Positions 2,051 to 18,057 of a stretch of DNA of 18,057 bases are shown piece after piece; positions within the stretch are counted from its first letter, which is position 1; each line of letters starts with the position of its first letter. Location: UHGV virus genome UHGV-0071990. The stretch is one strand, 5' to 3'. The notes under the pieces were generated by a model. That model ran no database searches, was not told the DNA's origin, and worked only from the letters and a program-made list of their open reading frames with translations. The translations under genes and the position numbers were made by a program. This DNA is from a virus.

Positions 2051-2350
2051 TCAGATGTTAAACGCTATTCGTTTTCCTGTGGGAAGCTCAACATCCAGGC
2101 TTAATTTGCCTCCCATAGCTTCAACGTAACGCTTTAATGTCGCCAGCTTTAAATCATTTCCGCGCTGCTCCAGCTTTGTTACTGCTGGCTGACTAATACC
2201 CATCGCCTCAGCAACCTGTTTTTGTGATAACTGGAGTTCTTCACGCATCATCTGCAAGCCGACCTCAAGAATCATCTCATCTGCCATTTCTTTAATTCGC
2301 GCCTGGCTTTCCGGTGAACGGCTGGCAATCACCTCATCTAATGTTCTCAT
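2051..2350 (-). CDS. HTH (XRE-type) antitoxin of a type II toxin-antitoxin pair, HigA-like addiction-module antidote (99 aa)
   Basis: HTH motif LSQKQVAEAMGISQPAVTKLEQRG. Its start overlaps the stop of the upstream toxin gene by 1 nt (TAATG). Toxin-first gene order is typical of HigBA-type modules. Confidence 0.8.
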   Translation of the reverse strand: MRTLDEVIASRSPESQARIKEMADEMILEVGLQMMREELQLSQKQVAEAMGISQPAVTKLEQRGNDLKLATLKRYVEAMGGKLSLDVELPTGKRIAFNI

Positions 2351-2697
2351 TACTTGCTCTCCAGTGTGTTCAGATGTGCTGCAAACTCATCCTCAGCTAT
2401 ACGCACCAGTTTTTTATAAAACCGCTTATCGTTACTTTTGTCTCCTGCACAAAGAACGATAGCCCGGCGAATCGGATCGAACGCATAAAAGGCTCTTATC
2501 GGACGGCCAGAAAACTGAACGCGAAGCTCTTTCATATTTTTGTACCGAGAACCTTTTACGGTATCGGCATATGGCCTGGGTAACTCAGGTCCGTAAACCT
2601 GTAGATTTTTCAAATCAGCCAAAACCTTTTCCTGAAGAGCGTCTTCTTGCTCATTTAGCCAGTCGTCAAATCGCTGGCTAAAAAGTACCGTCCACAT
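2350..2697 (-). CDS. RelE/ParE-superfamily (HigB-like addiction-module killer) toxin, about 115 aa
   Basis: Translation has the conserved pattern of this family (KELRVQFSGRPIRAFYAFDPIRRAIVLCAGDKSNDKRFYKKL). The likely true start is the ATG at 2697, preceded by AGGA; the ORF track extends to a TTG at 2703. Confidence 0.8.
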   Translation of the reverse strand: MWTVLFSQRFDDWLNEQEDALQEKVLADLKNLQVYGPELPRPYADTVKGSRYKNMKELRVQFSGRPIRAFYAFDPIRRAIVLCAGDKSNDKRFYKKLVRIAEDEFAAHLNTLESK

Positions 2698-2706
2698 GAT
2701 CAATCC

Positions 2707-3232: not shown

Positions 3233-3528
3233 ACATCTGTTTTGTTATCAATGAAGATTAATCCCAACCCAGCGAAGTAACACAGCAGCGCCCAGGCTGC
3301 ATACGGAATGCTGGATCTGGATGTGGACTCCTTTAACATCTGCCAATTGCGAACATTGCGACTGTCTTTTAGGCCAAGTTTTTTAGCCAACTGCGAGCCA
3401 CTCATTCCAGTCAGGCCAATGACTGCCCGAACTTCTCCACATGTAGGAGATTCCCATTCATCCGCTTTTTTTAAACAAGCCGGATTCAACATTTTTAAAA
3501 CAGTATCTTTATCCATAATCATCTCCAT
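3229..3528 (-). CDS. Putative HTH DNA-binding protein with a C-terminal hydrophobic segment (95-99 aa)
   Basis: HTH-like stretch RAVIGLTGMSGSQLAKKLGLKDSRNV and hydrophobic C-terminus IPYAAWALLCYFAGLGLIFI. The likely start is the ATG at 3516, preceded by GGAG. A palindrome TAGGAAA-tct-TTTCCTA sits at 3547-3563 just upstream. Confidence 0.55.
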   Translation of the reverse strand: MEMIMDKDTVLKMLNPACLKKADEWESPTCGEVRAVIGLTGMSGSQLAKKLGLKDSRNVRNWQMLKESTSRSSIPYAAWALLCYFAGLGLIFIDNKTDV

Positions 3529-3724
3529 TTATTACATCTACGATGGTAGGAAATCTTTTCCTATGTGGCAATAAAAATTTACCACGTTTCGTATAAGACA
3601 AGTTTTCTATGCCTAATAGGAAATGATGATTCTTACGTTTTATCACGTTCTGATGGCTACTGTGTGCGTATTTATCAACGTTTATTGATAAGGCTCGCCC
3701 CTTCCTCCTGCAAAGCCCGGCCGT

Positions 3725-3876
3725 AGGCCTTATTTCGGCCTTATATAAATTGATTTTGTATAGTTCGAAACGCGCCGTTTCGAAAAGAATGATCAGGCTG
3801 CTCCATGCCTCCGGCAAGTGCCGGAGGAGGTATATTTGAGCGTAGCGACTCGAACCGGCGCGAGCTTTAGCTCGCT
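3725..3876. repeat. Cluster of four GC-rich hairpins in an otherwise AT-rich intergenic region
   Basis: Seen directly: AGGCC-ttatttc-GGCCT (3725-3741); TTCGAAACG-cgc-CGTTTCGAA (about 3765-3785); CCTCCGG-caagtg-CCGGAGG (about 3808-3827); GCGAGC-ttta-GCTCGC (3861-3876). Function unknown. Confidence 0.4.
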
Positions 3877-3899
3877 GCAAGGGCGAACATATTCACAGG

Positions 3900-4159
3900 C
3901 AAAGCCTGCGTAAGTTAAATAAAGAAAGTCTTAATAAAAGAAAGTGATTTTGCATTTATTTGTTTAGTGCATCTATTATAAAAAACCATTTGCATATACA
4001 TATCAAAACTGTGGATAACTTAATTAGCCGATGCCTGTAAAGGCGATATTTACGCTGTGTTCAGGTTTAGAGAAAATTAACTTAGATTATTTTTTGAACA
4101 GATATTTTATTGCGACGTAGATAATCCTCCGGTAAAACCGGATTCATCATTCAGGTGGG
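3900..4159. other. Candidate plasmid-type replication origin (oriR-like): AT-rich region immediately downstream of repA
   Basis: Very AT-rich stretch located 3' of the RepA gene, which is where oriR lies in IncFII replicons. It contains a perfect DnaA box. No ORF of 60 aa or more is present. Confidence 0.4.
4010..4018 (-). promoter_or_regulatory. Consensus DnaA box (TTATCCACA on minus strand)
   Basis: Plus strand reads TGTGGATAA at 4010-4018, a perfect 9/9 match to the DnaA box consensus. Confidence 0.5.
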
Positions 4160-5008
4160 TTAATGTTGAAGTGATTTCCAGGTCTTTCTTAGCCTGTTAT
4201 AACGCTGCTCAACGAGGGAGCGTAAATATGCAAGGTCAGCACCAGGATACATGCCATCAGCAAACTCCTGGCTAACCTCTCTAGTGATTTGATGACGAAG
4301 TTCGGCCTCTCCCTTTTCCCGGACAAGACGCGCAGCTCTCTCCGCTGCTTTCTGTTTTGCCTTTATCTCTCTGGCCGTCTTCCTCTGACGCCATACATTC
4401 TCCATCTGCTCCTGAATAACAATACGCTTATAATCAGCCTCCGTTATCGCTTTTTTAAGCCGTTCGCTATTCTTCGCATTGAAGTAATTAAGTTTCTGGC
4501 TAACCGCACGTCTCCATGCTTGTTCAGTAATACCAACGGTTTCCAGCAGTTGATCACGAATCTCTATTTTCGCTGGCCAATACTGTTTATTCACCCGATC
4601 CCAGCGACGTTCATAATCAATAAAACCTAACGCTTTCAGTTGCGACAACGCCCTTGTACAGCGCGTTATAGACTTGTTCCCAGCTTCAGATACGGTAGAC
4701 AGGCCGCAAAAATCAGCCAACGCCTCAGCACTAGCCAGAACCCGCTTAGAAATGATGTTTACATGGTGCAAAATCGCAGCGATCACAGCATTAATCGCCC
4801 GACGACGATGCTCGTTTATCCGGCGCTTCCGCTCTGACGGTTGATTAACGTAGAACGCAACCTCACACGTAAGATCACGCCCATTAATGCGCTGTAAAGC
4901 ATCAGATAACACCAGTGGCAGCTTGTGCGTATGGTGCTTTGGAGGCTGGAACTCCGGCGATAAATTACAAACGTAAGCTGAACGTAGAGACGGCATTGGT
5001 CTATCCAT
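4160..5008 (-). CDS. repA: Plasmid replication initiator, IncFII RepA-family (about 282 aa from ATG at 5008)
   Basis: Translation contains RRAINAVIAAILHH...CGLSTVSEAGNKSITRCTRALSQLKALGFIDY and a basic, coiled C-terminus, which resembles the R1/R100 RepA1 protein as I remember it. The ORF track extends in-frame to 5170, but the ATG at 5008 gives the expected size. Confidence 0.75.
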   Translation of the reverse strand: MDRPMPSLRSAYVCNLSPEFQPPKHHTHKLPLVLSDALQRINGRDLTCEVAFYVNQPSERKRRINEHRRRAINAVIAAILHHVNIISKRVLASAEALADFCGLSTVSEAGNKSITRCTRALSQLKALGFIDYERRWDRVNKQYWPAKIEIRDQLLETVGITEQAWRRAVSQKLNYFNAKNSERLKKAITEADYKRIVIQEQMENVWRQRKTAREIKAKQKAAERAARLVREKGEAELRHQITREVSQEFADGMYPGADLAYLRSLVEQRYNRLRKTWKSLQH

Positions 5009-5018
5009 ATGTTCGCTC

Positions 5019-5046
5019 TTGCGTCCACGGAAAACCAACGTATAAT
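5019..5046 (+). promoter_or_regulatory. Sigma70-like promoter (-35 TTGCGT, 16-bp spacer, -10 TATAAT) directing transcription antisense to the repA leader
   Basis: Seen directly: ttgcgt at 5019-5024 and tataat at 5041-5046. Together with the terminator at 5105-5135 it defines a roughly 80-nt transcript. Confidence 0.5.
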
Positions 5047-5052
5047 GGGAGT

Positions 5053-5135
5053 TGTCGAGGCGCCCATGGATTGTTTTGTTGGTTTTCCGTGGATGTCGCA
5101 AGAAGCCCGCAGATTTATCTGCGGGCTTTTTGTTT
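5053..5135 (+). ncRNA. Putative CopA-like antisense RNA complementary to the repA mRNA leader (copy-number control)
   Basis: Promoter at 5019-5046 followed about 60 nt later by a strong intrinsic terminator. The unit lies 45-130 nt upstream of the repA start on the opposite strand, the same layout as CopA/CopT in IncFII plasmids. The transcription start is inferred, not observed. Confidence 0.5.
5105..5135 (+). terminator. Rho-independent terminator (GCCCGCAGA-ttta-TCTGCGGGC followed by TTTTTGTTT)
   Basis: Seen directly: a perfect 9-bp stem, 4-nt loop and T-tract on the plus strand. Confidence 0.65.
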
Positions 5136-5174
5136 CCATATCTGGTCAGTTTCCAACCAGACACCCACAATCGT

Positions 5175-5191
5175 AACCACGTTACGTGGTT
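5175..5191. promoter_or_regulatory. Perfect 17-bp palindrome (AACCACGT-T-ACGTGGTT) upstream of repA; candidate operator
   Basis: Seen directly, between the invertase stop (5321) and the repA leader. Confidence 0.3.
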
Positions 5192-5320
5192 TTAAGAGAA
5201 CTCTACCACAACACTTTCGGTCATGCACGAAGTCTCTCGCTAATCGAACGATAATCCACCAGTAAAAGGATCTAAATCGGATCTCGTGTTGCGAGCATCA
5301 TACTACTGGTCTTACTCCAG

Positions 5321-5875
5321 TCAATGATTCCCAGCCGGAAACCTGCGGTAAAGCGTGGATAAAGCAACATCGAAGATAATCGCTATCTGTTTACGTGAAA
5401 CACCATTCGCAATAAGCCTTCCGACCTGTTCCCATTGCTCTGGAGCCAGTTTTGAGCGGCGCCCCCCTATCCTGCCGTTAGCCCTTGCCACCGCTAATCC
5501 CGCACGCGTTCTTTCAATAATATTTTCCCGCTCCATTTCTGCGACCGCACTCAGCATTGTGTAGGCAAAGCGGCCAATTGATGTGCTAATTTTTATTCCT
5601 TCTGTAACAGAAATAAACTCAATGTTGTTTGATAAAAAATAGTTAAGTAATTCAACAAGATGAATCAGAGAACGTCCCATTCTGTCCAGCTTCCAGACAA
5701 TAACCGTATCGCCCGGCCGTAACGCTTTTATCAGCTTATCCAGTCCTGGTCGTTTTGACTTCGCGCCAGATATTTTATCTTCAAAAATCCGGTCACATCC
5801 TGAACTCCTGAGCGCTTCCAGTTGTAATTCCAAATTCTGGTCAAAAGTTGACACTCTCGCATAGCCGTATTGCAT
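5321..5875 (-). CDS. Serine-recombinase DNA invertase of the Hin/Gin/Cin/Pin family (184 aa)
   Basis: N-terminal catalytic motif GYARVSTFDQNLELQ, then VWKLDRMGRS, AEMERENIIERTRAGL, GRIGGRR and a C-terminal HTH (RKQIAIIFDVALSTLYRR), all collinear with Gin/Pin as I remember them. It lies directly adjacent to a crossover site. Confidence 0.93.
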   Translation of the reverse strand: MQYGYARVSTFDQNLELQLEALRSSGCDRIFEDKISGAKSKRPGLDKLIKALRPGDTVIVWKLDRMGRSLIHLVELLNYFLSNNIEFISVTEGIKISTSIGRFAYTMLSAVAEMERENIIERTRAGLAVARANGRIGGRRSKLAPEQWEQVGRLIANGVSRKQIAIIFDVALSTLYRRFPAGNH

Positions 5876-5939: not shown

Positions 5940-5965
5940 TTCTCAAAAACCTCGGTTTGCAGGAA
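5940..5965. promoter_or_regulatory. 26-bp invertase crossover site 1 (gix/cix/pix-like), core TC at 5952-5953
   Basis: TTCTCAAAAACC-TC-GGTTTGCAGGAA. The inner half is a perfect inverted copy of the inner half of site 2, and the outer half matches 9 of 12. It resembles the gix consensus TTCCTGTAAACCGAGGTTTTGGATAA. Confidence 0.8.
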
Positions 5966-6943
5966 ACGATAAACAAGGCTGGTAACGCCGTCCAAAAGAC
6001 AGGTGATGACTTATCAGGTGGACTTACTTTTACAAACGATTCAGTCCTTGCTTGGGGGAGAAATACTGACAGCGCAAAAATCGGATTTAAAAATGATGCC
6101 GACAGCGACACTGATTCATACATGTGGTTTGAAACGGGAGATAACGGCAATGAATATTTCAAATGGAGAAGCAAACAAAGCACAACAACAAAAGACCTGA
6201 TGACGCTGAAATGGGATGCGCTAAATATTCTTGTTAATGCCATTGTAAATGGCGAAGTCATATCAAAATCAGCAAACGGCCTCCGTATTGCTTACGGTAA
6301 TTACGGATTCTTTATTCGTAATGATGGTTCAAACACATACTTCATGTTGACAAACTCCGGTGACAACATGGGGACTTATAACGGATTAAGGCCATTATGG
6401 ATTAATAACTCTACTGGCGCTGTTTCGATGGGGCGTGGCCTTAGTGTTTCAGGAGAGACATATTCAGACCGTTTTGCGATTAATAGCGGCAACTCCATGT
6501 GGGTTGATATGCGCAAACAGAATGTCATTTTTGGCCGTAATGCGGTATCTAACGACAGTGCCCAGGCATTGTTACGTCAGGACCATAAAGATCGCAAATT
6601 TATGATTGGCGGTCTGGGAAATAAGCAATTTGGCATCTACATGATTAATAACTCAAGGACAGCCAATGGTACTGACGGTCAGGCGTATATGGACAATAAC
6701 GGTAACTGGCTTTGTGGTTCACAAATTATTCCCGGAAATTATGGAAATTTTGATTCCCGCTATGTGCGTGACGTTCGTATGGGAGCTAACCAGAGCGGAA
6801 TAAAATGGGGTGGTGAAGGTGGAACACTCCCGGCGGGGTATGTTCTTACAGGAGGTAACTTTGATGATGACTGGGAGTGGCCTGTTTATGCGCCCGTCCA
6901 GAAATATATTAATGGTCAGTGGTACAATGTAGGACGTGCTTAA
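5954..6943 (+). CDS. Silent alternative tail-fiber C-terminal cassette (about 329 codons, no own start)
   Basis: The open frame begins at the crossover with [15 protein letters not shown], paralleling GLQETVNQAAGALQK in the expressed fiber. It ends with the conserved C-terminal motif [11 protein letters not shown] (expressed copy: INGTWYNAGSI). It has no upstream start or Shine-Dalgarno motif. Confidence 0.8.
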
Positions 6944-6944
6944 T

Positions 6945-7472
6945 ATGCAGCATTTAAAAAATATTAAAGCAGGAAATCCAAAAACCATCGAACAGTATCA
7001 ACTTACAAAAGAATTTGATGTTGTCTGGTTATGGTCGGAAGACGGTAAGAACTGGTATGAGGAACAAAAGAATTTTCAGCCAGACACGTTAAAAATGGCA
7101 TATAACCAGGAGGGTATTATTTGCTGCATAGAGAAAGACGTATCCCTGATTAACCCGGAGGGAATGAGTGTGATTGAGTTACCCAATATTACGGCAAACC
7201 GACGCGCTGATATTTCCGGCAACTGGATGATTAAGGATGGTGCTGTAATTAAAAGAGTCTATACAGAAGATGAATTACAACAGCAGGCTGAATCACAAAA
7301 AGCAGCTTTGCTTTCCGAAGCTGAATCAGTCATCCGGCTGCTGGAACGTGCCGCCAGGATGAATCTGGCAACAGATGAGGAACGTACACGGCTGGATGGC
7401 TGGGAACGCTACAGCGTTCTGCTCAGCCGCGTGGATACGGCAAATCCAGAATGGCCACAAAAGCCTGAATAA
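6945..7472 (+). CDS. tfa: Tail fiber assembly chaperone, cognate to the silent cassette
   Basis: [20 protein letters not shown]... is closely paralogous to the 7499..8032 protein (shared [40 protein letters not shown] motifs). It starts 2 nt after the cassette stop. Confidence 0.85.
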
Positions 7473-7477
7473 AAAAT

Positions 7478-7495
7478 AAGGCCCGAACGGGCCTT
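7478..7495. terminator. Bidirectional hairpin terminator between the convergent tail-fiber assembly genes
   Basis: AAGGCCC-gaac-GGGCCTT with an A-run upstream and T-rich sequence downstream. Confidence 0.5.
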
Positions 7496-7498
7496 CTC

Positions 7499-8032
7499 TC
7501 ATTCTGGTTGTTCGGGGAACGTGACTGGCAGGACGGAGGTATCCGTAGACTCTACTTTCTGCGCGTAGAGCAGCCACTCGGTCAATTTTTGTTTATTCTC
7601 AGCAGAAATAATTCCAAGTCGTAGCTGAGAATCCCATAGCTGAGTTTTATCCCTGACGAGTTGTAACAGGTTTTGCTTCTCATTTTCCGCCTGTTGTCTC
7701 TGTTCTTCTTCGGTATATTCCCGCTTTATCACTGCGCCATCTTTGAACATCCAGTTACCAGAAATATCGACTCGCCTATTGGCTGTAATATCAGGAACCT
7801 CAACAACGCTTAAACCTTCAGGATTAATTGTCGATACATCCTTATCTACAGCCACAATGATTCCATCGGCAGTGTAAGCAAATTTTATTGTATCTTCCTG
7901 AAAGTTTTTCTGTTCCTCATACCAGTTTCTATCGTCATTAGAATACAACCAGACAACACCAAATTGTCGTGTTAATTCATATTGCTCTACGGTTTTGGGA
8001 TTTCCTGATTTGATATTTTTTAAATGCATCAT
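7499..8032 (-). CDS. tfa: Tail fiber assembly chaperone, cognate to the expressed fiber C-terminus
   Basis: MMHLKNIKSGNPKTVEQYEL... is paralogous to the 6945..7472 protein. It lies 2 nt downstream of the tail fiber stop. Confidence 0.85.
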   Translation of the reverse strand: MMHLKNIKSGNPKTVEQYELTRQFGVVWLYSNDDRNWYEEQKNFQEDTIKFAYTADGIIVAVDKDVSTINPEGLSVVEVPDITANRRVDISGNWMFKDGAVIKREYTEEEQRQQAENEKQNLLQLVRDKTQLWDSQLRLGIISAENKQKLTEWLLYAQKVESTDTSVLPVTFPEQPE

Positions 8033-8034
8033 AA

Positions 8035-10347
8035 TTAAATACTTCCCGCATTATACCAGGTGCCATTGATACAATATTGCACTGGCCTTGCCTGTGTTGT
8101 ATCAATAAGTTCATCTTTGTTTGAGTTAACGGAACCTGTAACAACGTAACCAGATTTATCGCCCCAGCCCGGACCATTCCATGTTTGCGCTGATGATTTT
8201 GTACCTAATCGAATACCTGTAATAAATCGTGAATTACATTCCGCTTTAGTATATGCCCCAACATCTGCTGCTGAAGGTTTTCTGGTTGTGGTGTAAAACT
8301 CTGACCAGTCAGCCTCGAAGCCATAACCATCACGCGCTGAACGATAATAAATCCCACCGTTCTTATAATTTACGCGGAACTGTACAGCAGGGCAGCTCCC
8401 CGCGTTCATATTGAAGTGGAGGATTAATGTCGATGCGCCACCAATATTTGCGTTATATACCCCGCTATTCCAGTTCCAGCCAACAGCTTTATCATTTCCG
8501 ACAGTGCTTCCTGTTATCCCTAAAGCAAAAGCGGCCTGCTGATTTTTCGTGTTGTAGTCACGTCGCCAGCCAGGTAAATACTCTGAACCATGGTTAATAT
8601 ATATAAATTGTGCATTAGTGGTGCCACCACCGCTAGAGGTACTCGGTGTGGTTATACGAATGGTCATGGCGCCTTTATGGCCCATAACTTCAATAACACA
8701 ACCCGCAAGGTGAATAAGTCCACATCCGGTGTCAGTAATAATTTTATTATTGCCGTATGACCATGAGCATTTACACAGCCAGTATGGATGATTGAAGGCC
8801 CATTGAGATTCCAGCCATTCGATAAATTGTGCCGTTGTCCAGTTCCCTGCTCCTGTGCTGATAGAGCTATGAAAAGAGCGGCAAGCACCTATTGTTTGCG
8901 TAAATTTATCTTTGTTTGGAATATCTGCGCCGTTCTGGTCTTTCTGCAATGCGCCAGCGGCCTGATTTACCGTTTCCTGCAAACCGAGGTATTCGATAAC
9001 GGCGGCAACGGTCGCTTTAGCCAGAATATCCCGCCCGACTTTTGTCAGAGTTGCCAGGCTGGCGGTGTCATTCCCTGTAAAATACGGAAACCTGTCTGCC
9101 GCAGTAGCAAGCCCGGCCAGCGCCGTCAGGGTGGCGTCTTTCGGCTGCTTGCCCGCAAGCGCGTTGGTCATAGTGGTCGCAAAGTTCGGGTCATTGCCCA
9201 GTGCCGCAGCCAGCTCGTTCAGCGTATTCAGTGCGTCAGGTGATGAGTCTACAAGTGCGGCAATCGCGGCCATAACGAACGCCGTGTTTGCTATCTGAGT
9301 ATTGTTAGTACCCTTTGGCGCAGTTGGTGTTGTTGGCGTTCCGGTCAGTGCCGGGCTGTTCAGGGGCGCTTTCTTGTTCGTTTCATCCATTACCGCCTTA
9401 ACCGCTTTCGATGTTGCGGCCAGTGTTTCAGACGTGCTGTTGGTCGCACTACTAAGCTGAGTGATGCCTCTTACTGTCAGTGAAGCTACAGGCACATTTG
9501 TAATCTGATTCCACGAATGCGTGTGATTGGAAGGAGCCTTTCCGGCCGCAAGATCATACGCTTCCTTAACAGCCTTTGGTGTTGCTGCTAGCGTTTCAGA
9601 CGTGCTATTGGTAGCGCTACTGAGCTGAACAATCCCTTTTCGCGCTGTGGTAGCGTCCTGTGCGGTGTATTTGCTATTAGCCAGGTCATATGCCTCCTTA
9701 ACAGCCTTAGGCGTCGCAGCAAGCTTTTCAGACGCGCTATTGGTGGCGCTACTAAGTTGAACAAAGCCTTTTGAGGTTAAAGTTGCATCAGGATGATTAC
9801 GTGATTGCTCATGTTTCACAATGGCTTGCTTAAGCCGCTTTGCTGAAACAGCAAGGGAATCATCTGTACCTGCATCAATTTCTTGTTCATTAGCAAATCT
9901 TGCTACCCCAACAACAGTTTCGGTCGCGGGAGGATTAATAAACTCAATATCACCAAATGTAATATTTTTAGTATCAAGAGTCTTAATTGCTATATCACTT
10001 GATATTAAAGCGATAGTAGATGATGCTTTATTTATTATTGCTTGTTCTTGTGAGTATACAGCAAACAAGGTTCCCTTATTCGTATACAATCCTATTGTAT
10101 GGACAACATACTCATCTTTACTATCATCCTTCGCCGTTACATGAATTGTATCAGGGGAAACAACTTTGCCACCTATTGTAGTAAGTCGTTTTATTTCGTT
10201 TGTTATATTTGTTTGTGAGGTTGACGTGACATAATATCTACTACCTAAACCAACAGAAACAATCTCAACTTTATTTGTTCCTGTTTTGTTGGCATTAACC
10301 AGCTCCTGACGCCCGGCATCAGTCATCGTAAATAATAATTTACTCAC
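8035..10347 (-). CDS. Phage tail fiber protein (770 aa) in its currently expressed orientation; constant region to about codon 454, variable C-terminus inside the invertible segment
   Basis: A long ORF directly after the gpI-like gene, with internal tandem repeats typical of fibers. The crossover site lies in-frame at codon 454 (IEY-L-GLQET). It is followed by a tail-fiber assembly gene. Confidence 0.9.
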   Translation of the reverse strand: MSKLLFTMTDAGRQELVNANKTGTNKVEIVSVGLGSRYYVTSTSQTNITNEIKRLTTIGGKVVSPDTIHVTAKDDSKDEYVVHTIGLYTNKGTLFAVYSQEQAIINKASSTIALISSDIAIKTLDTKNITFGDIEFINPPATETVVGVARFANEQEIDAGTDDSLAVSAKRLKQAIVKHEQSRNHPDATLTSKGFVQLSSATNSASEKLAATPKAVKEAYDLANSKYTAQDATTARKGIVQLSSATNSTSETLAATPKAVKEAYDLAAGKAPSNHTHSWNQITNVPVASLTVRGITQLSSATNSTSETLAATSKAVKAVMDETNKKAPLNSPALTGTPTTPTAPKGTNNTQIANTAFVMAAIAALVDSSPDALNTLNELAAALGNDPNFATTMTNALAGKQPKDATLTALAGLATAADRFPYFTGNDTASLATLTKVGRDILAKATVAAVIEYLGLQETVNQAAGALQKDQNGADIPNKDKFTQTIGACRSFHSSISTGAGNWTTAQFIEWLESQWAFNHPYWLCKCSWSYGNNKIITDTGCGLIHLAGCVIEVMGHKGAMTIRITTPSTSSGGGTTNAQFIYINHGSEYLPGWRRDYNTKNQQAAFALGITGSTVGNDKAVGWNWNSGVYNANIGGASTLILHFNMNAGSCPAVQFRVNYKNGGIYYRSARDGYGFEADWSEFYTTTRKPSAADVGAYTKAECNSRFITGIRLGTKSSAQTWNGPGWGDKSGYVVTGSVNSNKDELIDTTQARPVQYCINGTWYNAGSI
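8974..8999. promoter_or_regulatory. 26-bp invertase crossover site 2, core GA at 8986-8987, inside the tail fiber coding sequence
   Basis: TTCCTGCAAACC-GA-GGTATTCGATAA. Bases 8971-8990 are the exact reverse complement of 5949-5968. Confidence 0.8.
9390..9790. repeat. Three imperfect tandem repeats (about 140-160 bp each) within the tail fiber constant region
   Basis: The DNA motif ccttaac(a/c)gc...gtttcagacg(t/c)gct(a/g)ttgg...gc(a/g)ctact(a/g)ag(c/t)tga recurs near 9398, 9557 and 9698. It encodes the repeated peptide QLSSATNS(A/T)SE(K/T)LAAT(P/S)KAVK. Confidence 0.6.
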
Positions 10348-10377: not shown

Positions 10378-10959
10378 TTAGCACTCGCCAATTAATCGTA
10401 CATAAGACACAGGCTGACAAGCACCAACAATACCGACACCACCAGAAACATTGGCAGCTTGCGAAAATGTAAATAATGTTCTTGCCGACTTTGCGCTCTT
10501 GATACTTCTTAACGTATCTTCCAACATCTCTTTCGAAGGAACGGCACCATCAAAAGAGTTAATCGAAGCAACAATTGAGGCTGTATATGGTTCGCCAGGT
10601 GGTGATGTTTCAAACCATTCTGTTATGTTTACTTCTCCACCCAAACTATTTACTACATCTTCAACTGCTGCCCGTGTGCCCTTTATTCGCTTTGTTCGTA
10701 TTATTGATTTAAAAACAGAACGCTTTAACGATACAGGCCAACTATCCCTCCATGTGTCAGCATTCCATTGCCAGGCTAAATGGTCGAGAACAACTGAGTC
10801 AAGGTTATCAACAGCGCTATATATTTCTGTCTTATATATTAAATTGTTAATTGCTTGTAGTTCATCATCAATAGCTTTCGACATAGCTATTACGTTGGGA
10901 TCTCTAGCTAAGTTAGGAGGTAAAACATCTAACAAGCTAACATTAAAGATATCAGCCAT
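10378..10959 (-). CDS. Tail/baseplate protein, P2 gpI-like (YmfQ/DUF2313-like), 193 aa
   Basis: It sits between the baseplate J gene and the tail fiber gene, overlapping J by 8 bp. Size and position fit the gpI-like family. The assignment rests on synteny and general resemblance. Confidence 0.7.
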   Translation of the reverse strand: MADIFNVSLLDVLPPNLARDPNVIAMSKAIDDELQAINNLIYKTEIYSAVDNLDSVVLDHLAWQWNADTWRDSWPVSLKRSVFKSIIRTKRIKGTRAAVEDVVNSLGGEVNITEWFETSPPGEPYTASIVASINSFDGAVPSKEMLEDTLRSIKSAKSARTLFTFSQAANVSGGVGIVGACQPVSYVRLIGEC

Positions 10960-12076
10960 CCTCTAACCCCGCATACTGGCAATTTATGTTTCTCTCTCTG
11001 GCAACCTGCGTCTCTCCAACTACAGTAAATACAGGACTTGATATTTCTAATCTCTTAGCCCCGGCATTTTTCAAACGTTGAATAATTTCATCTGGATTTA
11101 TATCTCTTCCCATAACAGAACGTTGCCATTGTTTATACTCATCAATAGCTTTCTCGACCTCACTTTGAATTAATGTTGTTCGGTTTTTATCCGATGAGTT
11201 AATCCAGTATTTAATTATTATATCGTATTCAATGGTATCTGGTTTCTTAACAAGAACTTTATCTGTGAATGGCCGAATATTAGTTGCCGAGAGGACGCTA
11301 TTTATCTGCTCTAATAATTCATCAGATGGTATATCTCCATTCTCTAGCAAAGAACGGATTTCTACAGTTCCTGGAGATGGTGTATATACATTCACATCCT
11401 TTATATTCTGATTTGCTGTTCTTGTCCAATATTTATAAGAATCCTCTGGCCCTGCTGTAGATAGTTTTTCCGGCGATAATTTTATTCTTTCAGCATAATT
11501 ATTATCTGACTCTATATCGGCACCAGAATTAGATGTTGTTAAATTCCTTACGCTGGAAACATACGGTAATGGAGTCACCAACTCGTTAATTTGCCCAGGT
11601 AAAAAACCATTCCCTGATGAGCCAGGTATAAGAGCATATCCAGAGACTGTACCAACTGTTTTTCCTGCGGGGATTTCCAACAATATATCTGTTTGGAAAA
11701 TAACACCATTTCCAGTTGAAACCTGAGTACCAGCAGGGATTGTATATATCCCTGACAATTTTGTTGACAGATTAAACTCAAATGTAGTTAATGCAGATTG
11801 AGCCTCCAACCTAGGTGTATCCGTCAGATGGCCTATATGGTCGAGATATTCACCTTCACCATATGTAAGAAGATTTTGTTTTGCAGAAAAATCGATAGCT
11901 TTTCTTTGCTGTATAATAACCTCACACAATGACAAGATGAATAATCTACGTGGATCAGCAGGTGCTAATGTTTCATCTGTTATACTCTCAAAAGCCCTGA
12001 TTGCACGAGTTGTTATATCAGTCGGGTTAGAATCTGCGAAAGTAATATCTGGCAAACCACCGCGCGGCAACTTCAT
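10952..12076 (-). CDS. Baseplate J-like protein (374 aa)
   Basis: Size and position immediately after the gp25/W-like gene, with a 4-bp overlap (ATGA-type coupling). The sequence is consistent with the baseplate J family. Confidence 0.8.
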   Translation of the reverse strand: MKLPRGGLPDITFADSNPTDITTRAIRAFESITDETLAPADPRRLFILSLCEVIIQQRKAIDFSAKQNLLTYGEGEYLDHIGHLTDTPRLEAQSALTTFEFNLSTKLSGIYTIPAGTQVSTGNGVIFQTDILLEIPAGKTVGTVSGYALIPGSSGNGFLPGQINELVTPLPYVSSVRNLTTSNSGADIESDNNYAERIKLSPEKLSTAGPEDSYKYWTRTANQNIKDVNVYTPSPGTVEIRSLLENGDIPSDELLEQINSVLSATNIRPFTDKVLVKKPDTIEYDIIIKYWINSSDKNRTTLIQSEVEKAIDEYKQWQRSVMGRDINPDEIIQRLKNAGAKRLEISSPVFTVVGETQVARERNINCQYAGLEDG

Positions 12077-12393
12077 TCTCTAACTCCTATCACCAGTTTT
12101 GGCCTAATAAAACCATCAGAAACGTCCGTCCTTTCAAAAGTAACAGAATGGATGATAGCTCTAGGCTCAAACTCACTAATTTTTTGAATTATTTCTCGTG
12201 TTGCTGTAGCAATAAAAATTGGACTTGGGCTATCAACAAAACTTGAATTAATTCCTAATTTTCTGGCATATGGTACGGTGCCAATCTGAGTGTTAATAAT
12301 AGTAGAGACATTTTGCAAAACTTCTTCTACAACTGTTTTTGGCGACCAATCAATCAAGTAAGAAGATGATGGTACGGTAAACATATTATTCAT
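12073..12393 (-). CDS. Baseplate wedge protein, gp25/gpW-like (106 aa)
   Basis: Size of about 105 aa and position upstream of J. The sequence is consistent with the GPW/gp25 lysozyme-like baseplate family. Confidence 0.75.
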   Translation of the reverse strand: MNNMFTVPSSSYLIDWSPKTVVEEVLQNVSTIINTQIGTVPYARKLGINSSFVDSPSPIFIATATREIIQKISEFEPRAIIHSVTFERTDVSDGFIRPKLVIGVRE

Positions 12394-12857
12394 AATAATT
12401 TACCTAACACACTTCGAGTTTTTGATTCTATATTGCCAGCAATATCAACTAATGCTTCTTTCAGCGAGGTCTGTCCGACTTCCTGTAATTTAATGCCGAC
12501 GATAATCACTCGTGGATTCCCAGTTGGACCGAAATAAGTCCATGACTCCTCTATATCTGTAATTATAAAATTACCAAAATACTGAATACCAATTACAACA
12601 GGATTTACTTCCTGAATTGATTGCATTGTCCTAAGTAATGAAAGCGCAGCCAATGGAACAATGCCAAGTGTTGTATCCAACCGCATGTTAAAACTAACTT
12701 CATCCAGATCGGGACCTATATCCTCCAGAACAGGTTTAAGCCCAATAACATCATGGCGCGCCACACGACGCTTTGACGTCCTTTTAAAATTATTGAACGT
12801 ATTCACCACTATTGATGAAGCAAAAAAAGGCATTGTACCAAGCATACCCACAATCAT
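12390..12857 (-). CDS. Tail/baseplate-associated protein of unknown function (155 aa)
   Basis: ORF translationally coupled (4-bp overlaps) to gpV-like upstream and gp25-like downstream. I recognise no family. The true start may be internal. Confidence 0.55.
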   Translation of the reverse strand: MIVGMLGTMPFFASSIVVNTFNNFKRTSKRRVARHDVIGLKPVLEDIGPDLDEVSFNMRLDTTLGIVPLAALSLLRTMQSIQEVNPVVIGIQYFGNFIITDIEESWTYFGPTGNPRVIIVGIKLQEVGQTSLKEALVDIAGNIESKTRSVLGKLL

Positions 12858-13474
12858 GCCTGAGCCTCCGTTGTCGGAGCGTATTCTCCCTGAGCTGTGT
12901 GATGGTGGGCTTTAGATTTAATCCCATCAACATCTATATCACCACCAACAACCTTAACATTTCCAGAAATTGTAGCTGCAACTCCTCCAGCAGAAGATCC
13001 TTTCATTCCACCCTTGAAGGTTAGTAATCCTTCAACTGTAGCATTTCCGGTAATGATAGTTTCTGGAGCATCAATAGTTACGGTTCCTGTAGCCTTAACG
13101 GTTACATCTCCGACAGCATCAACAATGAGTAAGTTAGATTCTCTGTCTATCTCAATACGAGTTCCGTTATTAAATCTAATAACGCGTTTATTAACAGTAT
13201 TAGATGGCGGTTTCTGTGTTTCATCATAAAAACTACCAAGAATAAAACCTTGTTGCGGCCCCGCGGGATGAAAGATACACAAGACTTGTTCACCAATATC
13301 TGGCATCCAGTAATCAGCATTCTTATCTGTATTTTTCACAATAACTGATAACTTTGCCGAAGTGACGTTATCCTGATCATCGAAAGTAACTCTTGCCGTA
13401 ACATCACTATCATCAATATCAGAAACAACGCCAATTCTTATAGTCTGACGTAATAATGTTTCTAAATCGTTCAT
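12854..13474 (-). CDS. Baseplate spike/assembly protein, gpV-like (206 aa)
   Basis: Size, position after the hub gene, and a C-terminal beta-rich region ending in an HHH motif (TVKATGTVTIDAPETIITGNATVEG...KAHHHT), typical of gpV/Mu gp45-type spikes. Confidence 0.75.
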   Translation of the reverse strand: MNDLETLLRQTIRIGVVSDIDDSDVTARVTFDDQDNVTSAKLSVIVKNTDKNADYWMPDIGEQVLCIFHPAGPQQGFILGSFYDETQKPPSNTVNKRVIRFNNGTRIEIDRESNLLIVDAVGDVTVKATGTVTIDAPETIITGNATVEGLLTFKGGMKGSSAGGVAATISGNVKVVGGDIDVDGIKSKAHHHTAQGEYAPTTEAQA

Positions 13475-13476
13475 AA

Positions 13477-14478
13477 TTAATACCCATTAATTACTCTTCG
13501 GACATCAATCGAGGTGGTATAACCACTAACCCCAATTGAATGTGCAGCTTTCGATATAAGATATTTTCCAGAAAATGAACCGAATCCGTCCAGATTTATA
13601 GTTACACCAGCTACCAGCCTAGTGTCTCCAACCAATACTAAAGACCCGGTATTTTGATATCTATTTTTAAGCCGCAAAGCGGCCTTTGCCTTACGTTTTG
13701 CTTCATCTAAATTAGCTACCACTTTTCTTATTTTAAGATTTGACCCTTCTTCTATGGATGGATCTACCCAAGTATATGAAAGCGATTTTCTTTTCTTCGG
13801 AATACGATATTTACATGTACAACTTTTATACAAATCCGTAGATTGTGTGCTAAAGCTATATCTTATTATCTCATCAACGCCTAATGTAAGCGTGGCGATA
13901 GGATCTCTTTGCTCAAACATCTCTTGAGCAAATATCACTAATTGGGTATCAGTAACCTTTAACGATAGCCCTTCATCCTGGCAAAGCCGATGGAGAAATT
14001 TTAAATCGCTTTCCTCAGTCTGATCTTCACGCGCATAATATGGATTACTATCCTTATCAATAAGAAACAACAATTCAATATTAGCTAATTTAGCTATAGA
14101 TGCAGCAATATCTTTGAGTGTTGTCTTTTCCCATGCATTACTTTTTAAATTACGTCTGATTCCTGACGACACAGGAACAGAAACAGCTGTAACCTCAACA
14201 ACAGAAGGAGGACCAGAACAAGTTACACCATCTACCTGGAATTTCCCGCACTCAAGAACGATTTGATTAATCGGCTTAAAGTTTAAATCAATAAAATCAC
14301 CCTTTTTAGGTGTCCAGTCTCCAGACCATTTTCCATCATCATTTTTTAATGTAATAGATATATCATCGACCTGACCATCTTCATTATCCGTATAAGATAT
14401 TGATAAAATATCAGGCGACATATGAGCGGTAATATTTACATTCTGATATATAACATCAAAAAGCGTTTTACGTAACAC
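13477..14478 (-). CDS. Baseplate hub protein, P2 gpD-like (late control D family), 333 aa
   Basis: Position between the LysM-like X gene and the gpV-like gene, as in P2/PBSX-type tail modules. Family assignment is by synteny and size. Confidence 0.65.
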   Translation of the reverse strand: MLRKTLFDVIYQNVNITAHMSPDILSISYTDNEDGQVDDISITLKNDDGKWSGDWTPKKGDFIDLNFKPINQIVLECGKFQVDGVTCSGPPSVVEVTAVSVPVSSGIRRNLKSNAWEKTTLKDIAASIAKLANIELLFLIDKDSNPYYAREDQTEESDLKFLHRLCQDEGLSLKVTDTQLVIFAQEMFEQRDPIATLTLGVDEIIRYSFSTQSTDLYKSCTCKYRIPKKRKSLSYTWVDPSIEEGSNLKIRKVVANLDEAKRKAKAALRLKNRYQNTGSLVLVGDTRLVAGVTINLDGFGSFSGKYLISKAAHSIGVSGYTTSIDVRRVINGY

Positions 14479-14686
14479 TATTGCGTCTCCACGGAGGCAA
14501 ATTGTTTACTGCTGTTGGCATATCTGGAGCATCAGGAACTTTAAGAATAATTCCCGCAGAAAAAAGCACCGTAAAACGGTGCTCTGTATTAGCATCAATC
14601 AGAAGGTAAGACAGGTACTCATTACCATATAACTTTAATGCGATACTATCCCATGAATCCCCCTGAACCGTTCTGTAATCATCCAA
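14468..14686 (-). CDS. Tail protein X-like (LysM-like), 72 aa
   Basis: YRTVQGDSWDSIALKLYG...LIDAN...ILKVPD follows the P2 gpX/LysM pattern. It overlaps the tape-measure stop by 8 bp. Confidence 0.7.
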   Translation of the reverse strand: MDDYRTVQGDSWDSIALKLYGNEYLSYLLIDANTEHRFTVLFSAGIILKVPDAPDMPTAVNNLPPWRRNSVT

Positions 14687-17471
14687 AACTTAATCTCCGT
14701 TGTTGGAACAGATGAGCACTCAATTTCTTCTCAAAATCAGAATATCCCGCATCTAATGCTCTTTTAGCTGCAGCCTCAGTTTCCTTTGGTGAGCCAGCCG
14801 GAAGATTGATTACAGGCGAATAGGTTATCCCACCAGTCACTGCGTTAACGTTCTGGCGAGGTCCAGAACTCCCGGCAGCAGAGATCCCGTGAGGTGATAA
14901 ATTTGATTGCCCGAACTGGGTTGCGATTGCATTCTGTAAGCTGTTATTTCTGCTAACACCAGATGCCAGAGTAGTCATTATTGCACCACCTGACTTTGTT
15001 AGCTGTGAGAATGGACCTTTTTTCGCATCAGAGAACGGCAAGTACTCACGTACAGAAGAAAAAACGCCTTTTACTTCATTGATTAAAGCATTTGCTTTTG
15101 ATTTTATCCCTGTGATTAACGTCTCAATTATTTTTGCACCTGACTCACTCCAGTTTATTCCAGACAAATAAGCTGTTACAGATTGAAATGCTCTTATAAA
15201 GAGTCCAACTGGTGAAAAACGCATAAAAACAGATACCAGCGTATCTATGATTTTCTTTCCTGTTTCGCTCCAGTTAATGCCAGAAAGGTAATTTGCTGTA
15301 AGTTTAAACGCTTTAATTAATAACGGAAGCGGAGACATCCATTTAAAAGCACTAATTAATGTATTGTAAATTCTTACTCCTGCCGAACTCCAGTTTATAT
15401 TGGAAAGATAATTCCATGCTTTACCAAACATAGATATAATCCATCCATTGAGATCAAAGTTTAAGATAAAGTTTTTTATAGCCTCAAACGATTTAACTGT
15501 ATATTCCTTAACAGAAGGCCAAACTCTGACAGCATAATCTCTGATCTTATCCCAGTTCTGATAGAGCAATATTCCTGCCGCAACCAGCGCAGATATAGCA
15601 ATCTGAATCCACCCGAAGGGTGTTAGCTTTGTCGCTACAGATAAAGCCAGCATAGCTACCCTACACGCTATAACCACACTTTTCATGGTTAGAAACGCAC
15701 CTGCTGCCATCACAATCTGAGACACAAAATTGGGGTTGTTAGCTACAAATTCACTAATTTTTGTAATCAGCGGAACCAAAACACTAAGCGCGGCATTCAA
15801 AGCAGGTTGCAAGGCCTGACCAAAACTTAATGATGCATTGCTAGCCTGAATACGTAATTGTTTCAATCGCTCCGCATTGTCTTTCGTTATGTTGGCAAAA
15901 TCGCGGTCAATAACGGCACTTCCAGCTCCAAGAGATGTTGCTTTGATCCTCTGGTATTCCTTCCAGTTTTGAATCATCGGACGAACAAAGTTCTGAACCT
16001 GCATATCGCCAAATAGTTCACCAAGTAACTTCTGATCTCCGTTCTTAGTCATTTTCATGACAGAATGCATTGCAGCTTCGAATGGATTCTTCCCTTTTTT
16101 CTGCGCTGTTGTGACAATTTTATATAAATCTACACCGAAATTTTTCTTTGCTTTTTTTAGTGTTTCAGGGGAAAGTATTTTTGCCAAAAAGTTGTTCATA
16201 TTATTAGCAGCCTCATCCGAAGTTGCAGCACCTTTGCGAGCTATCTGCAAAGCTGCCCCCATCGTCGCGGCGGCTTCTTTACCTCCCATTTTTAATGCCT
16301 GGAACTGAGCACCAAGCACAGGAAGATTTTTGGCCATATCTTTAAATTCAAAGTTCCCCTCTTTCCCTGCCTGAACCAAAATCCCCATTGCAGACTTCAT
16401 TTGAGATGGATCAATCTTCAATGAGTCACTTAATGTAAATGATGCTTTCGAAACATCGAGGATATCAGAGCCAGTAGCTGTAGCCGTTCGCCCAATCGTT
16501 AGTAGATTCGCCTGAGCCTCTTTATAATCCTGCCCGGCAGCAACGAGAAAACCCTGAGCGGCCTGAATATCAGATGCAAACTGGTTGGTGGCCGTTCCGG
16601 TAACAAGCATCGCTCGCCCCATCGCCTGAACTTCTTCCGGCTTCATATCTGCCGTAAGACCAATCATTTTGTTTTCACGATTAAAATTTGCTGCATTATT
16701 AGCAGCAGCAAATGCGCCAGCCGCTACAGCACCAGTTTGTAATCCTGATCTTACAAGTTGACTCTTTGCCTCACCAAGATGCTCTCGCTTCAATTCACGC
16801 TGTCTTTCCAGCGCGCGGTTTAACTCTTCCTGAGCACGTTTTACTGCAAGAACATTTTTCCGTGCTTCAACCAACGCATTTTTATAGCTGTTAATTTTAT
16901 CAATACGTTGTTTTTCTAATGCCCGGTTAAGTTCCTCCTGCTGCTTTTTCACTTGCTGGACATTTGCTCTGGCTAAAGCCAAAGCCGTTCTGTAGCGGTT
17001 AACCTGCTCAACGCTACGGGCCTGAGCCTCACGATTACGATCAATGCTGGCTGTAAGCTCTTTCTCTCTTAAGGCCAAAGCTCTGGCAGATGTATCAGTG
17101 CCCTGATAGGCAGACTTTAAAGCGGCCAGTTCTTCACGCTGAGAACGTAGTGATGCTCGTAAATTCGATGAATGTGTTTTTGCCTTCTCAAAGTCACGAA
17201 GCATCGCTCTGGTTGGATTGGCCGTGTTTTTTATTTGCTTCTGTAACTCTTCAACGCGAGCGGCAGCTTTATGATATTCGAGGGCTGTCTGTCCAACCTT
17301 TACTTTTACAGATTGTAGCTTTTGAATTTCCCCATGTTCTTTCGTTAATCCAGCAAGCTCGGCATTTAATTTAGCAACAGCCTGATTAGCTGTAGTAAAA
17401 CTTTTGGGGAGAGAGGCGGCAACTTTGCCGCCAATTTCAAAAGCCAGCTTAAAGTTCTTATTGCTGGCCAT
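14679..17471 (-). CDS. Tail tape measure protein (930 aa)
   Basis: A long ORF with an extended Ala/Lys/Glu/Gln-rich coiled-coil N-terminal half, a central hydrophobic segment and repeated W-containing motifs in the C-terminal half. It lies immediately downstream of the frameshifted chaperone gene. ATG at 17471 is preceded by GAGGA. Confidence 0.9.
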   Translation of the reverse strand: MASNKNFKLAFEIGGKVAASLPKSFTTANQAVAKLNAELAGLTKEHGEIQKLQSVKVKVGQTALEYHKAAARVEELQKQIKNTANPTRAMLRDFEKAKTHSSNLRASLRSQREELAALKSAYQGTDTSARALALREKELTASIDRNREAQARSVEQVNRYRTALALARANVQQVKKQQEELNRALEKQRIDKINSYKNALVEARKNVLAVKRAQEELNRALERQRELKREHLGEAKSQLVRSGLQTGAVAAGAFAAANNAANFNRENKMIGLTADMKPEEVQAMGRAMLVTGTATNQFASDIQAAQGFLVAAGQDYKEAQANLLTIGRTATATGSDILDVSKASFTLSDSLKIDPSQMKSAMGILVQAGKEGNFEFKDMAKNLPVLGAQFQALKMGGKEAAATMGAALQIARKGAATSDEAANNMNNFLAKILSPETLKKAKKNFGVDLYKIVTTAQKKGKNPFEAAMHSVMKMTKNGDQKLLGELFGDMQVQNFVRPMIQNWKEYQRIKATSLGAGSAVIDRDFANITKDNAERLKQLRIQASNASLSFGQALQPALNAALSVLVPLITKISEFVANNPNFVSQIVMAAGAFLTMKSVVIACRVAMLALSVATKLTPFGWIQIAISALVAAGILLYQNWDKIRDYAVRVWPSVKEYTVKSFEAIKNFILNFDLNGWIISMFGKAWNYLSNINWSSAGVRIYNTLISAFKWMSPLPLLIKAFKLTANYLSGINWSETGKKIIDTLVSVFMRFSPVGLFIRAFQSVTAYLSGINWSESGAKIIETLITGIKSKANALINEVKGVFSSVREYLPFSDAKKGPFSQLTKSGGAIMTTLASGVSRNNSLQNAIATQFGQSNLSPHGISAAGSSGPRQNVNAVTGGITYSPVINLPAGSPKETEAAAKRALDAGYSDFEKKLSAHLFQQRRLSFG

Positions 17472-17476
17472 TAGTA

Positions 17477-17907
17477 TTAATCCTCATTAAACACGTCAAT
17501 CCAGGCGACGATTCGCCTCAACCGAAGCGAAAGCCAGTAGGATATAGGTGTTGATTGAGATGATTGAGATAGAGAACTCGCGGCCCTCATTATTTGCTTA
17601 TCAATAGGTTTTTTCTCATCAAAACCTACGAGAGCAAAAAATTCTGTACCTTTTGGCAAACTTTAACAAAGTCTTTCGCTGGCAATCCATTCAGATACTC
17701 TATCGGACGGCCAATACAGCGAGCAGCCAGAGCAACATGGACTTTATGATCAAGTGATGTTTGAACTGTAACATGCCCTTGAGATTGCAGTAAGTCTGAT
17801 ACTTCTAAAATATCGCTGCCTTTTAGTTTGTCTAAATCAAGGTTGAGTTCAGTCACCGGCTCGAAGTCTTCAAAACGATACTCTTTACTTAATTTAACGG
17901 TTTCCAT
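17477..17907 (-). CDS. Tail assembly chaperone, predicted -1 frameshift fusion product (about 140 aa)
   Basis: The -1 frame is open from the slippery site to a TAA at 17477, 6 bp before the tape-measure ATG. This is the same architecture as P2 E/E' and lambda G/GT. Confidence 0.6.
17626..17907 (-). CDS. Tail assembly chaperone (93 aa), zero-frame product
   Basis: A small acidic ORF directly upstream of the tape measure gene. ATG at 17907 is preceded by AAGGTGA. It ends with a slippery heptamer. Confidence 0.7.
   Translation of the reverse strand: METVKLSKEYRFEDFEPVTELNLDLDKLKGSDILEVSDLLQSQGHVTVQTSLDHKVHVALAARCIGRPIEYLNGLPAKDFVKVCQKVQNFLLS
17635..17641 (-). promoter_or_regulatory. Programmed -1 ribosomal frameshift slippery heptamer T_TTT_TTG
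   Basis: The minus strand reads CAG AAT TTT TTG CTC TCG TAG in the zero frame, and the heptamer T TTT TTG is 3 codons before the stop. The plus strand has CAAAAAA at 17635-17641. Confidence 0.65.
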
Positions 17908-18057
17908 TTTGTCACCTTATAAACCTAAATCATCACGAACGCTTTTTAATATATCTTCACCATCAAAGATACAAATAAAGTTCAATTTATCAATTTCCAG
18001 GACTGAAGTGGCACACTGAATTTGGCCACCTGAACAGAGGTGATATGCTCACCTCAG

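Follow-up and report, generated by a model that had tools for sequence, protein, structure and literature searches.

What kind of element is it in which a plasmid-type replication gene stands next to phage tail genes, and how would such a replicon be controlled? The question is raised by UHGV virus genome UHGV-0071990, of which a stretch of 18,057 nucleotides (nt), referred to here as the window, carries the gene repA and a putative origin of replication on its minus strand. Taken as a whole, the explanation that we hold to be very probable is that this locus is the plasmid-state replicon of a temperate myovirus of about 48 kb, kept as a circular plasmid, the copy number of which an antisense RNA would set.

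According to the list of open reading frames (ORFs), the minus strand between positions 4160 and 5170 holds a single long one. Its product matches Pfam PF02387 (IncFII_repA; E=8e-44, 150.5 bits, cut-off 22.9) over profile positions 2–272 of 275, and NCBIfam NF040977 (RepA_IncFII_LM) with 232.2 bits against a cut-off of 70; the full-length match above the curated cut-off places the protein in the IncFII_repA superfamily. An earlier note on this DNA had expected this family for a protein read from 4160–5008 on the minus strand. The identity as RepA stood, but the start at 5008 did not. The start was placed at the conserved ATG at 4996 (MPSLRS...) because the annotated Salmonella orthologue begins at the same codon, eight homologues with 58–86% identity align from the residue which it encodes, and indels occur upstream of it. 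Longer 5' extensions, namely a 336 amino acid (aa) TTG ORF and a 326-aa PGAP call, were ruled out, the frame being broken by indels of 1–7 nt in relatives.

The same protein did not reach the threshold of the TIGR03474 incFII_RepA equivalog (79.2 bits, cut-off 446.9), and its identity to a genuine IncFII RepA is 39% across 105 residues. In a PLSDB protein search (spread sample) the closest RepA outside its own family was 36% identical, and a profile search of genome contigs with the RepA alignment gave distant matches only (33–37% identity), in Buchnera and Bowmanella. Its match in PHROGs is phrog_7060 (E=6e-123), a phage protein of unknown function. Judged by sequence, then, the replicon is of the IncFII superfamily without being IncFII in the strict sense (R1/R100 type). 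The previous label, "IncFII-type", holds at the level of the superfamily and not for strict IncFII, the equivalog cut-off, CopA, copB and a conserved tap all having failed.

Downstream of repA the resemblance to a genuine IncFII plasmid is closer. The hairpin that follows the stop codon (Table 1) shows a compensatory TCCAG/CTGGA change in the group of relatives with about 60% RepA identity, and a genuine IncFII plasmid has it behind its repA as well. Between it and the DnaA box lies TGTTCAAAAAA, in relatives TGTATAAAAAA. The box itself, TTATCCACA, is the only perfect one in the window and is situated 142 nt past the repA stop codon. At least one match to it arose in 40 of 200 shuffles, so that one match in a sequence of this length is in itself unremarkable; relatives have the box at the same place, and about 110 nt of 75% A+T follow it. 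The box and the blocks ATGCAAATGGTTTT, GATGCA and ATGCAA-ATCAC are kept in all relatives, including a plasmid with a type IV secretion system (T4SS), and the G+C-rich block ACTTACGCAG...CTGTGAATATG..CGCCCTTGCAGCG...CGCGCCGGTTCG is kept in every relative; by analogy, its hairpins could be a priming signal. These origin features persist across relatives with 60–85% RepA identity and in a 63% identical relative carried by a conjugative plasmid of VirB type. In the genuine IncFII plasmid the repA stop codon is likewise followed by this hairpin and, at 176 nt, by a DnaA box, and there are also an AT-rich tract and a GC block with a hairpin; in having an origin with DnaA box and AT-rich tract downstream of repA, the window therefore agrees with strict IncFII. 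The AT-rich, origin-like region with a DnaA box reported directly downstream in the earlier note is thus confirmed. A listed ORF of 123 aa (3509–3880) overlaps the G+C-rich hairpins and is probably spurious.

The replicon region (3500–5400) is 97–98% identical to at least 54 circular plasmids of 46–52 kb from E. coli, E. fergusonii, E. albertii and Klebsiella aerogenes, and about 75% identical to Salmonella relatives. Among the near-identical references is the 48,488-bp plasmid of E. coli ATCC 25922 (NZ_CP009073.1), a quality-control strain for antibiotic testing. This plasmid and that of S. Weltevreden (47,244 bp), both annotated, carry on one circle genes for terminase, portal, ClpP-type protease and major capsid protein, and in addition those for tail, tape measure, baseplate, holins, lysin, a CI-like repressor, ParA and Ref; a 488-aa protein upstream of the tube gene is presumably the sheath. 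The order of genes around repA is the same in both. Yersinia phages vB_YpM_39, vB_YpM_41 and vB_YpM_44 (OR545053-55; 49 kb), the records of which name Y. pestis EV76-CN as host, have the same genome including this RepA; the window covers 80–86% of them at 95–96% identity, and among 50,697 phage records they are the only ones with a high-identity RepA. Eleven viral contigs in IMG/VR carry this RepA lineage.

A search of 5,426 complete E. coli genomes placed the replicon in 71 of them, at 82 places, all 82 on plasmid records, and a 3.5-kb baseplate probe was found in 71, at 77 places, again all on plasmids; the two sets of 71 were counted separately. No integrated, chromosomal copy of either was present in these genomes at this sensitivity. 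An integrated prophage with a mere remnant of a plasmid replicon has in its favour that the window is without contig ends, and nothing more; this reading is close to refuted by the absence of any chromosomal place for replicon or baseplate, by the lack of an integrase in the annotated relatives and by a repA that is intact and conserved.

Plasmid replication genes and a full virion set are thus found on one replicon in relatives that are 94–98% identical, the window itself holding the replicon with baseplate, tape measure and fibre genes, and the plasmid records show the family to be extrachromosomal in lysogens. Because of the circular relatives, the plasmid-only places, the phage records and the IMG/VR contigs, the phage-plasmid reading is well supported for the family. 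This was the principal claim of the earlier note, and it stands at family level; the par, terminase and capsid genes for which it proposed to look are annotated in relatives as ParA, terminase and major capsid. It could assign the element to no known reference, but near-identical ones exist in the ATCC 25922 plasmid and phages vB_YpM_39, 41 and 44.

How the output of RepA might be set was sought in the leader of its gene. The -35 hexamer of the candidate repA promoter, the Salmonella counterpart of which reads TTGACT-16-TATCAT, overlaps the stop codon of the upstream invertase gene, which leaves no room for copB; no ORF for it lies between invertase and repA, where the control IncFII plasmid has copB as well as tap. 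The sense leader (4985–5200, 216 nt), which holds a stem-loop here termed SL-I, folds with z=-8.4. On the opposite strand, positions 5015–5140 form a long stem-loop with a hairpin rich in G+C and a run of U after it (z=-10.1; z=-6.6 for 5050–5140). An antisense RNA of about 85 nt is likely to be transcribed from this strand, with an inferred start near 5050–5054 and a terminator hairpin at 5099–5132 preceding the U-run. Its putative promoter has a perfect TATAAT 16 nt after TTGCGT. In the lineage with about 60% RepA identity the counterpart, identified by eye, is TTGCAT-18-TATAAT, and a TTGC -35 with a perfect TATAAT is present on the antisense strand in every lineage. CopA (Rfam RF00042) had no match in the window at E<=1, the control IncFII plasmid scoring 98.9 bits, and in the Rfam scan the terminator hairpin gave partial matches to terminator-containing models only.

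Comparison of relatives supports both structures. About 110 nt of the control region are invariant between E. coli and Salmonella (alignment columns 206–250 and 273–333), with flanks that are about 75% identical. Each unique variant, when folded on its own, gave the two-hairpin architecture (13 segments, representing 10 distinct trimmed sequences). At least two standard pair types occur at 14 of 26 paired positions of SL-I and at 3 of 11 of the terminator, and RNAalifold found three compensatory pairs in the close clade alone. In the 60% lineage, which comprises Citrobacter freundii, metagenome and IMG/VR contigs and adjoins Mu-type baseplate genes, both stems are rewritten with the two-hairpin layout, the apical loop GCCTCGACAACTCC and the TATAAT all kept. 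The single-stranded 5' tail of the antisense RNA is complementary to the SL-I loop. Stems of the Salmonella relatives contain U-G and G-U pairs which are valid in the sense strand only, as would be expected of an antisense RNA with its start within SL-I and no need of the stem itself.

Other known devices were looked for in the leader. The sole candidate for a Tap/RepY-like leader peptide, with an ATG in SL-I (MGASTTPIIRW...), was rejected: it has no Shine-Dalgarno sequence, runs 85–181 nt past the repA start to a variable length, and the 60% lineage has ATC in place of its ATG, so that a leader peptide appears unlikely. PK-repBA (RF01089) gave no match in the window at E<=1, and no complement between a pseudoknot loop and the ribosome-binding site was found by eye in the window leader. 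Several smaller features were recorded. A pair of GATCC motifs 11 bp apart (5268–5283) closely follows the repA promoter; the Salmonella relatives keep it too, and it could be a Dam/SeqA-sensitive site. A hairpin AACCACG-TAA-CGTGGTT (5175–5191), its stem kept and its loop different in Salmonella, lies just downstream of a conserved extended -10-like TGGTAGAGT (5200–5208); together they could be a second promoter or an operator. In the 60% lineage an extra ORF of 125–162 aa stands between the antisense-control region and repA, overlapping the repA start by 4 nt (L006, 9516–10004; L009, 5528–6004; L010, 1236–1712; L011, 1–378, cut by the contig end). It has a weak winged-helix match in L006 only, and the window is without such an ORF.

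The consequence of antisense binding was modelled by holding the covered segment of the leader unpaired, the ribosome-binding region being taken as positions -14 to +3. In the window the probability that the ribosome-binding site is paired thereby rose from 0.41 to 0.82, a value reached by none of 100 shuffled sites, and in these folds the partner of that region is the released 3' arm of SL-I. A shift in the same direction was seen in the five relatives scored, convincingly only in L023 (1 of 100 shuffles); L021 was left out of the comparison, the wrong start codon having been scored.

These elements can be combined in a working mechanism. By what is known of R1 and R100, RepA, acting in cis, and the DnaA of the host would together open the AT-rich tract, and the G+C-rich block downstream of that tract may serve as a priming signal. 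From the sequence and its comparison, a constitutive antisense RNA would set the output of RepA and hence the copy number. Its 5' end, being complementary to the exposed loop of SL-I, would nucleate pairing there; pairing with the 5' arm of SL-I might then release the 3' arm, which might in turn pair with the ribosome-binding site of repA and block translation. This last step, sequestration of the site, is hypothetical and comes from the folding model. Such control would operate with no CopB-like repressor, conserved leader peptide or recognisable pseudoknot. The toxin-antitoxin pair of the window and ParA, located outside it in relatives, would add stability.

Several points weigh against the explanation that the window holds the antisense-controlled replicon of a phage-plasmid. 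The antisense RNA is a candidate drawn from sequence, and its -35 hexamer is weak, scoring only 3/6, for which reason the promoter scan missed the promoter. In the four other relatives scored, 17–22 of 100 shuffles equal the observed sequestration. Isolation of virions is indicated only by the GenBank phage records, no paper describing it having been found in the literature searched. The window comprises 18 kb without contig ends, and the plasmid state of this particular copy is read from its relatives. Lastly, no second replication initiator was recognised in the ATCC 25922 element, so that RepA could also, or instead, serve lytic replication; the one further replication-like gene of this element (L001) encodes a DUF3560 protein (26015–27082) with a C-terminal half like a phage primase family (E=1.8e-36).

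That RepA and the origin are mainly a lytic replication module, to which plasmid maintenance is secondary, would agree with the failure to recognise such an initiator in the early region of that element and with the PHROGs listing of RepA as a phage protein. We nevertheless consider it quite unlikely: antisense throttling of an initiator is a device of copy-number control, the 63% identical RepA drives a VirB-type conjugative plasmid without phage genes, and each of the 82 copies found in complete E. coli genomes is a stable plasmid. Returning to the plasmid-state replicon, a more specific version of it is offered tentatively and is in our view rather doubtful, though a real possibility. In it the antisense RNA would represent a family undescribed in Rfam, acting through strand exchange and block of the ribosome-binding site without leader peptide, pseudoknot or CopB, and RepA would perhaps be the sole initiator, in the plasmid state and in lytic growth.

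Table 1. Features of the window, with positions counted from its first nucleotide
Feature	Position	Strand	Description
repA	4160..4996	-	278-aa replication initiator, IncFII_repA superfamily; from profile matches and alignment to homologues
Post-stop hairpin	4126..4142	-	TCCGG-N7-CCGGAGG, just after the repA stop codon
Origin core	3896..4018	-	DnaA box TTATCCACA (4018-4010), three ATGCA motifs (3995, 3972, 3955), 75% A+T tract
Three conserved G+C-rich hairpins	3808..3908	-	Downstream of the AT-rich tract
repA promoter (candidate)	5297..5324	-	TTGACT, 16-nt spacer, TATGAT; 10/12 in promoter scan
Stem-loop SL-I of the repA mRNA leader	5018..5102	-	About 23 base pairs; apical loop GCCUCGACAACU (5061-5050)
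Antisense (countertranscript) RNA gene (candidate)	5019..5137	+	-35 TTGCGT 5019-5024, -10 TATAAT 5041-5046
DNA invertase, serine recombinase (Cin/Gin/Hin type)	5321..5875	-	Resolvase and HTH_7 domains, E=2.9e-45
Invertible tail-fibre segment (S', U', U, 3' part of S)	5940..8999	.	58-nt inverted repeats 5940-5997 and 8942-8999
Type II toxin-antitoxin pair	2051..2703	-	Gp49/HigB-like toxin 2350-2703 (E=7e-23); HTH_3 antitoxin 2051-2350
P2-type tail genes I, J, W, U, V, D, X, tape measure, chaperone	10378..17907	-	
Insertion-sequence end	18005..18057	+	Disrupts the tail-tube gene at a point 86 nt short of the gene's 3' end

The genes that surround the replicon (Table 1) largely agree with what had been described earlier. 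The DNA invertase said to stand beside repA does adjoin the replicon as its upstream neighbour, and is annotated "hin" in phage vB_YpM_44; the toxin-antitoxin pair, placed within about 1.5 kb, ends 1.46 kb from the repA stop. The "complete myovirus tail module" was correct for tape measure, chaperone, baseplate and fibre genes, and incorrect in that the sheath gene lies beyond the right end of the window and the tube gene is cut at 18004. The invertible segment, which encodes two alternative fibre tips and two chaperones, has about 80% identity to the Mu G and P1 C segments.

At its right end the match of the window to all relatives stops at 18004, and the 53 nt that remain form one end of an insertion sequence. 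This end occurs in 4,013 of the 5,426 E. coli genomes, with as many as 24 copies in a genome; in another copy a transposase gene begins 19 nt past this end. Because the insertion lies in the tail-tube gene, this copy is possibly no longer able to form virions, and it may persist only as a plasmid. It would on that account be a defective phage-plasmid, its tube gene inactivated and its persistence due to RepA, the toxin-antitoxin pair and ParA. We regard this reading as evenly balanced. The common end point of the relatives' match and the multicopy nature of an insertion-sequence end located 86 nt inside the gene speak for it, as do insertions of the IS3 family in other members of the family; on the other hand, the window shows no more of the insertion than its first 53 nt, the window end could be chimeric, and the remainder of the window is intact. 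A defective copy refines the phage-plasmid explanation rather than contradicting it.

The closest known systems are the ATCC 25922 plasmid and phages vB_YpM_39, 41 and 44, with replicons 97–98% identical, RepA 99.6–100% identical, the same order of invertase, repA, origin and toxin-antitoxin pair, and the tail genes. The window covers 76–91% of these records at 94–96% identity, and differs from them in tail-fibre and small accessory genes and by the insertion sequence in the tube gene. The vB_YpM records annotate RepA as "hypothetical protein". With the IncFII plasmids R1 and R100 (copB, copA/copT, tap, repA, oriR) the window shares the RepA superfamily, control from the antisense strand of the repA leader, and a downstream origin with the TCCGG...CCGGAGG hairpin, the TTATCCACA box, an AT-rich tract and a G+C-rich block; in contrast to them it is without a CopA match, copB or a conserved tap, and its candidate control RNA and target are unrelated to theirs in sequence. 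The repBA control of IncB and IncL/M plasmids (IncB/I/K/Z/L/M type), which combines a leader peptide with a pseudoknot, is similar in that the RepA belongs to RepA_IncFII_LM and a target stem-loop lies upstream of the ribosome-binding site, but with neither a PK-repBA match nor a conserved leader peptide the window does not belong to that type. The leader of the 63% identical RepA on the VirB-type conjugative plasmid (L007, 9869–9989) does match PK-repBA (49.3 bits), and a single RepA clade therefore has at least two designs of leader control.

Phage P1, too, is a myovirus that persists in plasmid form, and an invertase controls its fibre region, the C segment, to which the segment of the window is related. 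Relatives of the window carry a P1-type C4 immunity antisense RNA, beside a Rha/Ant-like gene just past the window's left end (L004, 32257–32343; L006, 16477–16565). The element is about half the size of P1 and differs from it in the portal, ClpP-type protease and major capsid set of its relatives, in its P2-type tail and in its replicon family, the replication initiator of P1 being an iteron-type RepA. Membership of the P1 or D6 groups was rejected, the matches being confined to the invertible fibre segment, or 16% of the window. A pSLy3-like element was also rejected: pSLy3 (about 110 kb) is of the SSU5 supergroup, which consists of siphovirus elements of about 100–125 kb, described in the literature as siphophages of 107–111 kb, and the present family, at 46–52 kb with a contractile-tail gene set, is not part of it. 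Yersinia phage HQ103, which has been called "plasmid-like", is an unrelated peduovirus of 32 kb.

The element is thus an ordinary member of an unnamed group of phage-plasmids, near-identical copies of which are already public, their protein called RepA by PGAP. No name for the group was found in the literature searched, and it may have been catalogued before; the element falls outside the ten phage-plasmid groups that have been typed. For the P1 and pMT1 groups, replicons of IncFII type have been listed before, and no concept is changed, since phage-plasmids with such replicons were known. The candidate control RNA is the sole part undescribed in the sources searched. PlasmidFinder is given as "ND" (not detected) for two members (PMC7366661), MOB-suite returned no replicon type for the annotated relatives, and a preprint which includes two partial members did not recognise their plasmid-prophage nature.

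About 1.3% of complete E. coli genomes, that of ATCC 25922 among them, carry this element. Standard typing is blind to its replicon, and phage records and PHROGs label its RepA hypothetical or of unknown function; as a result, surveys of plasmids and of phage-plasmids can miss or misfile it. RepA, the origin and the candidate control RNA provide a marker for the group and would make a compact mini-replicon.

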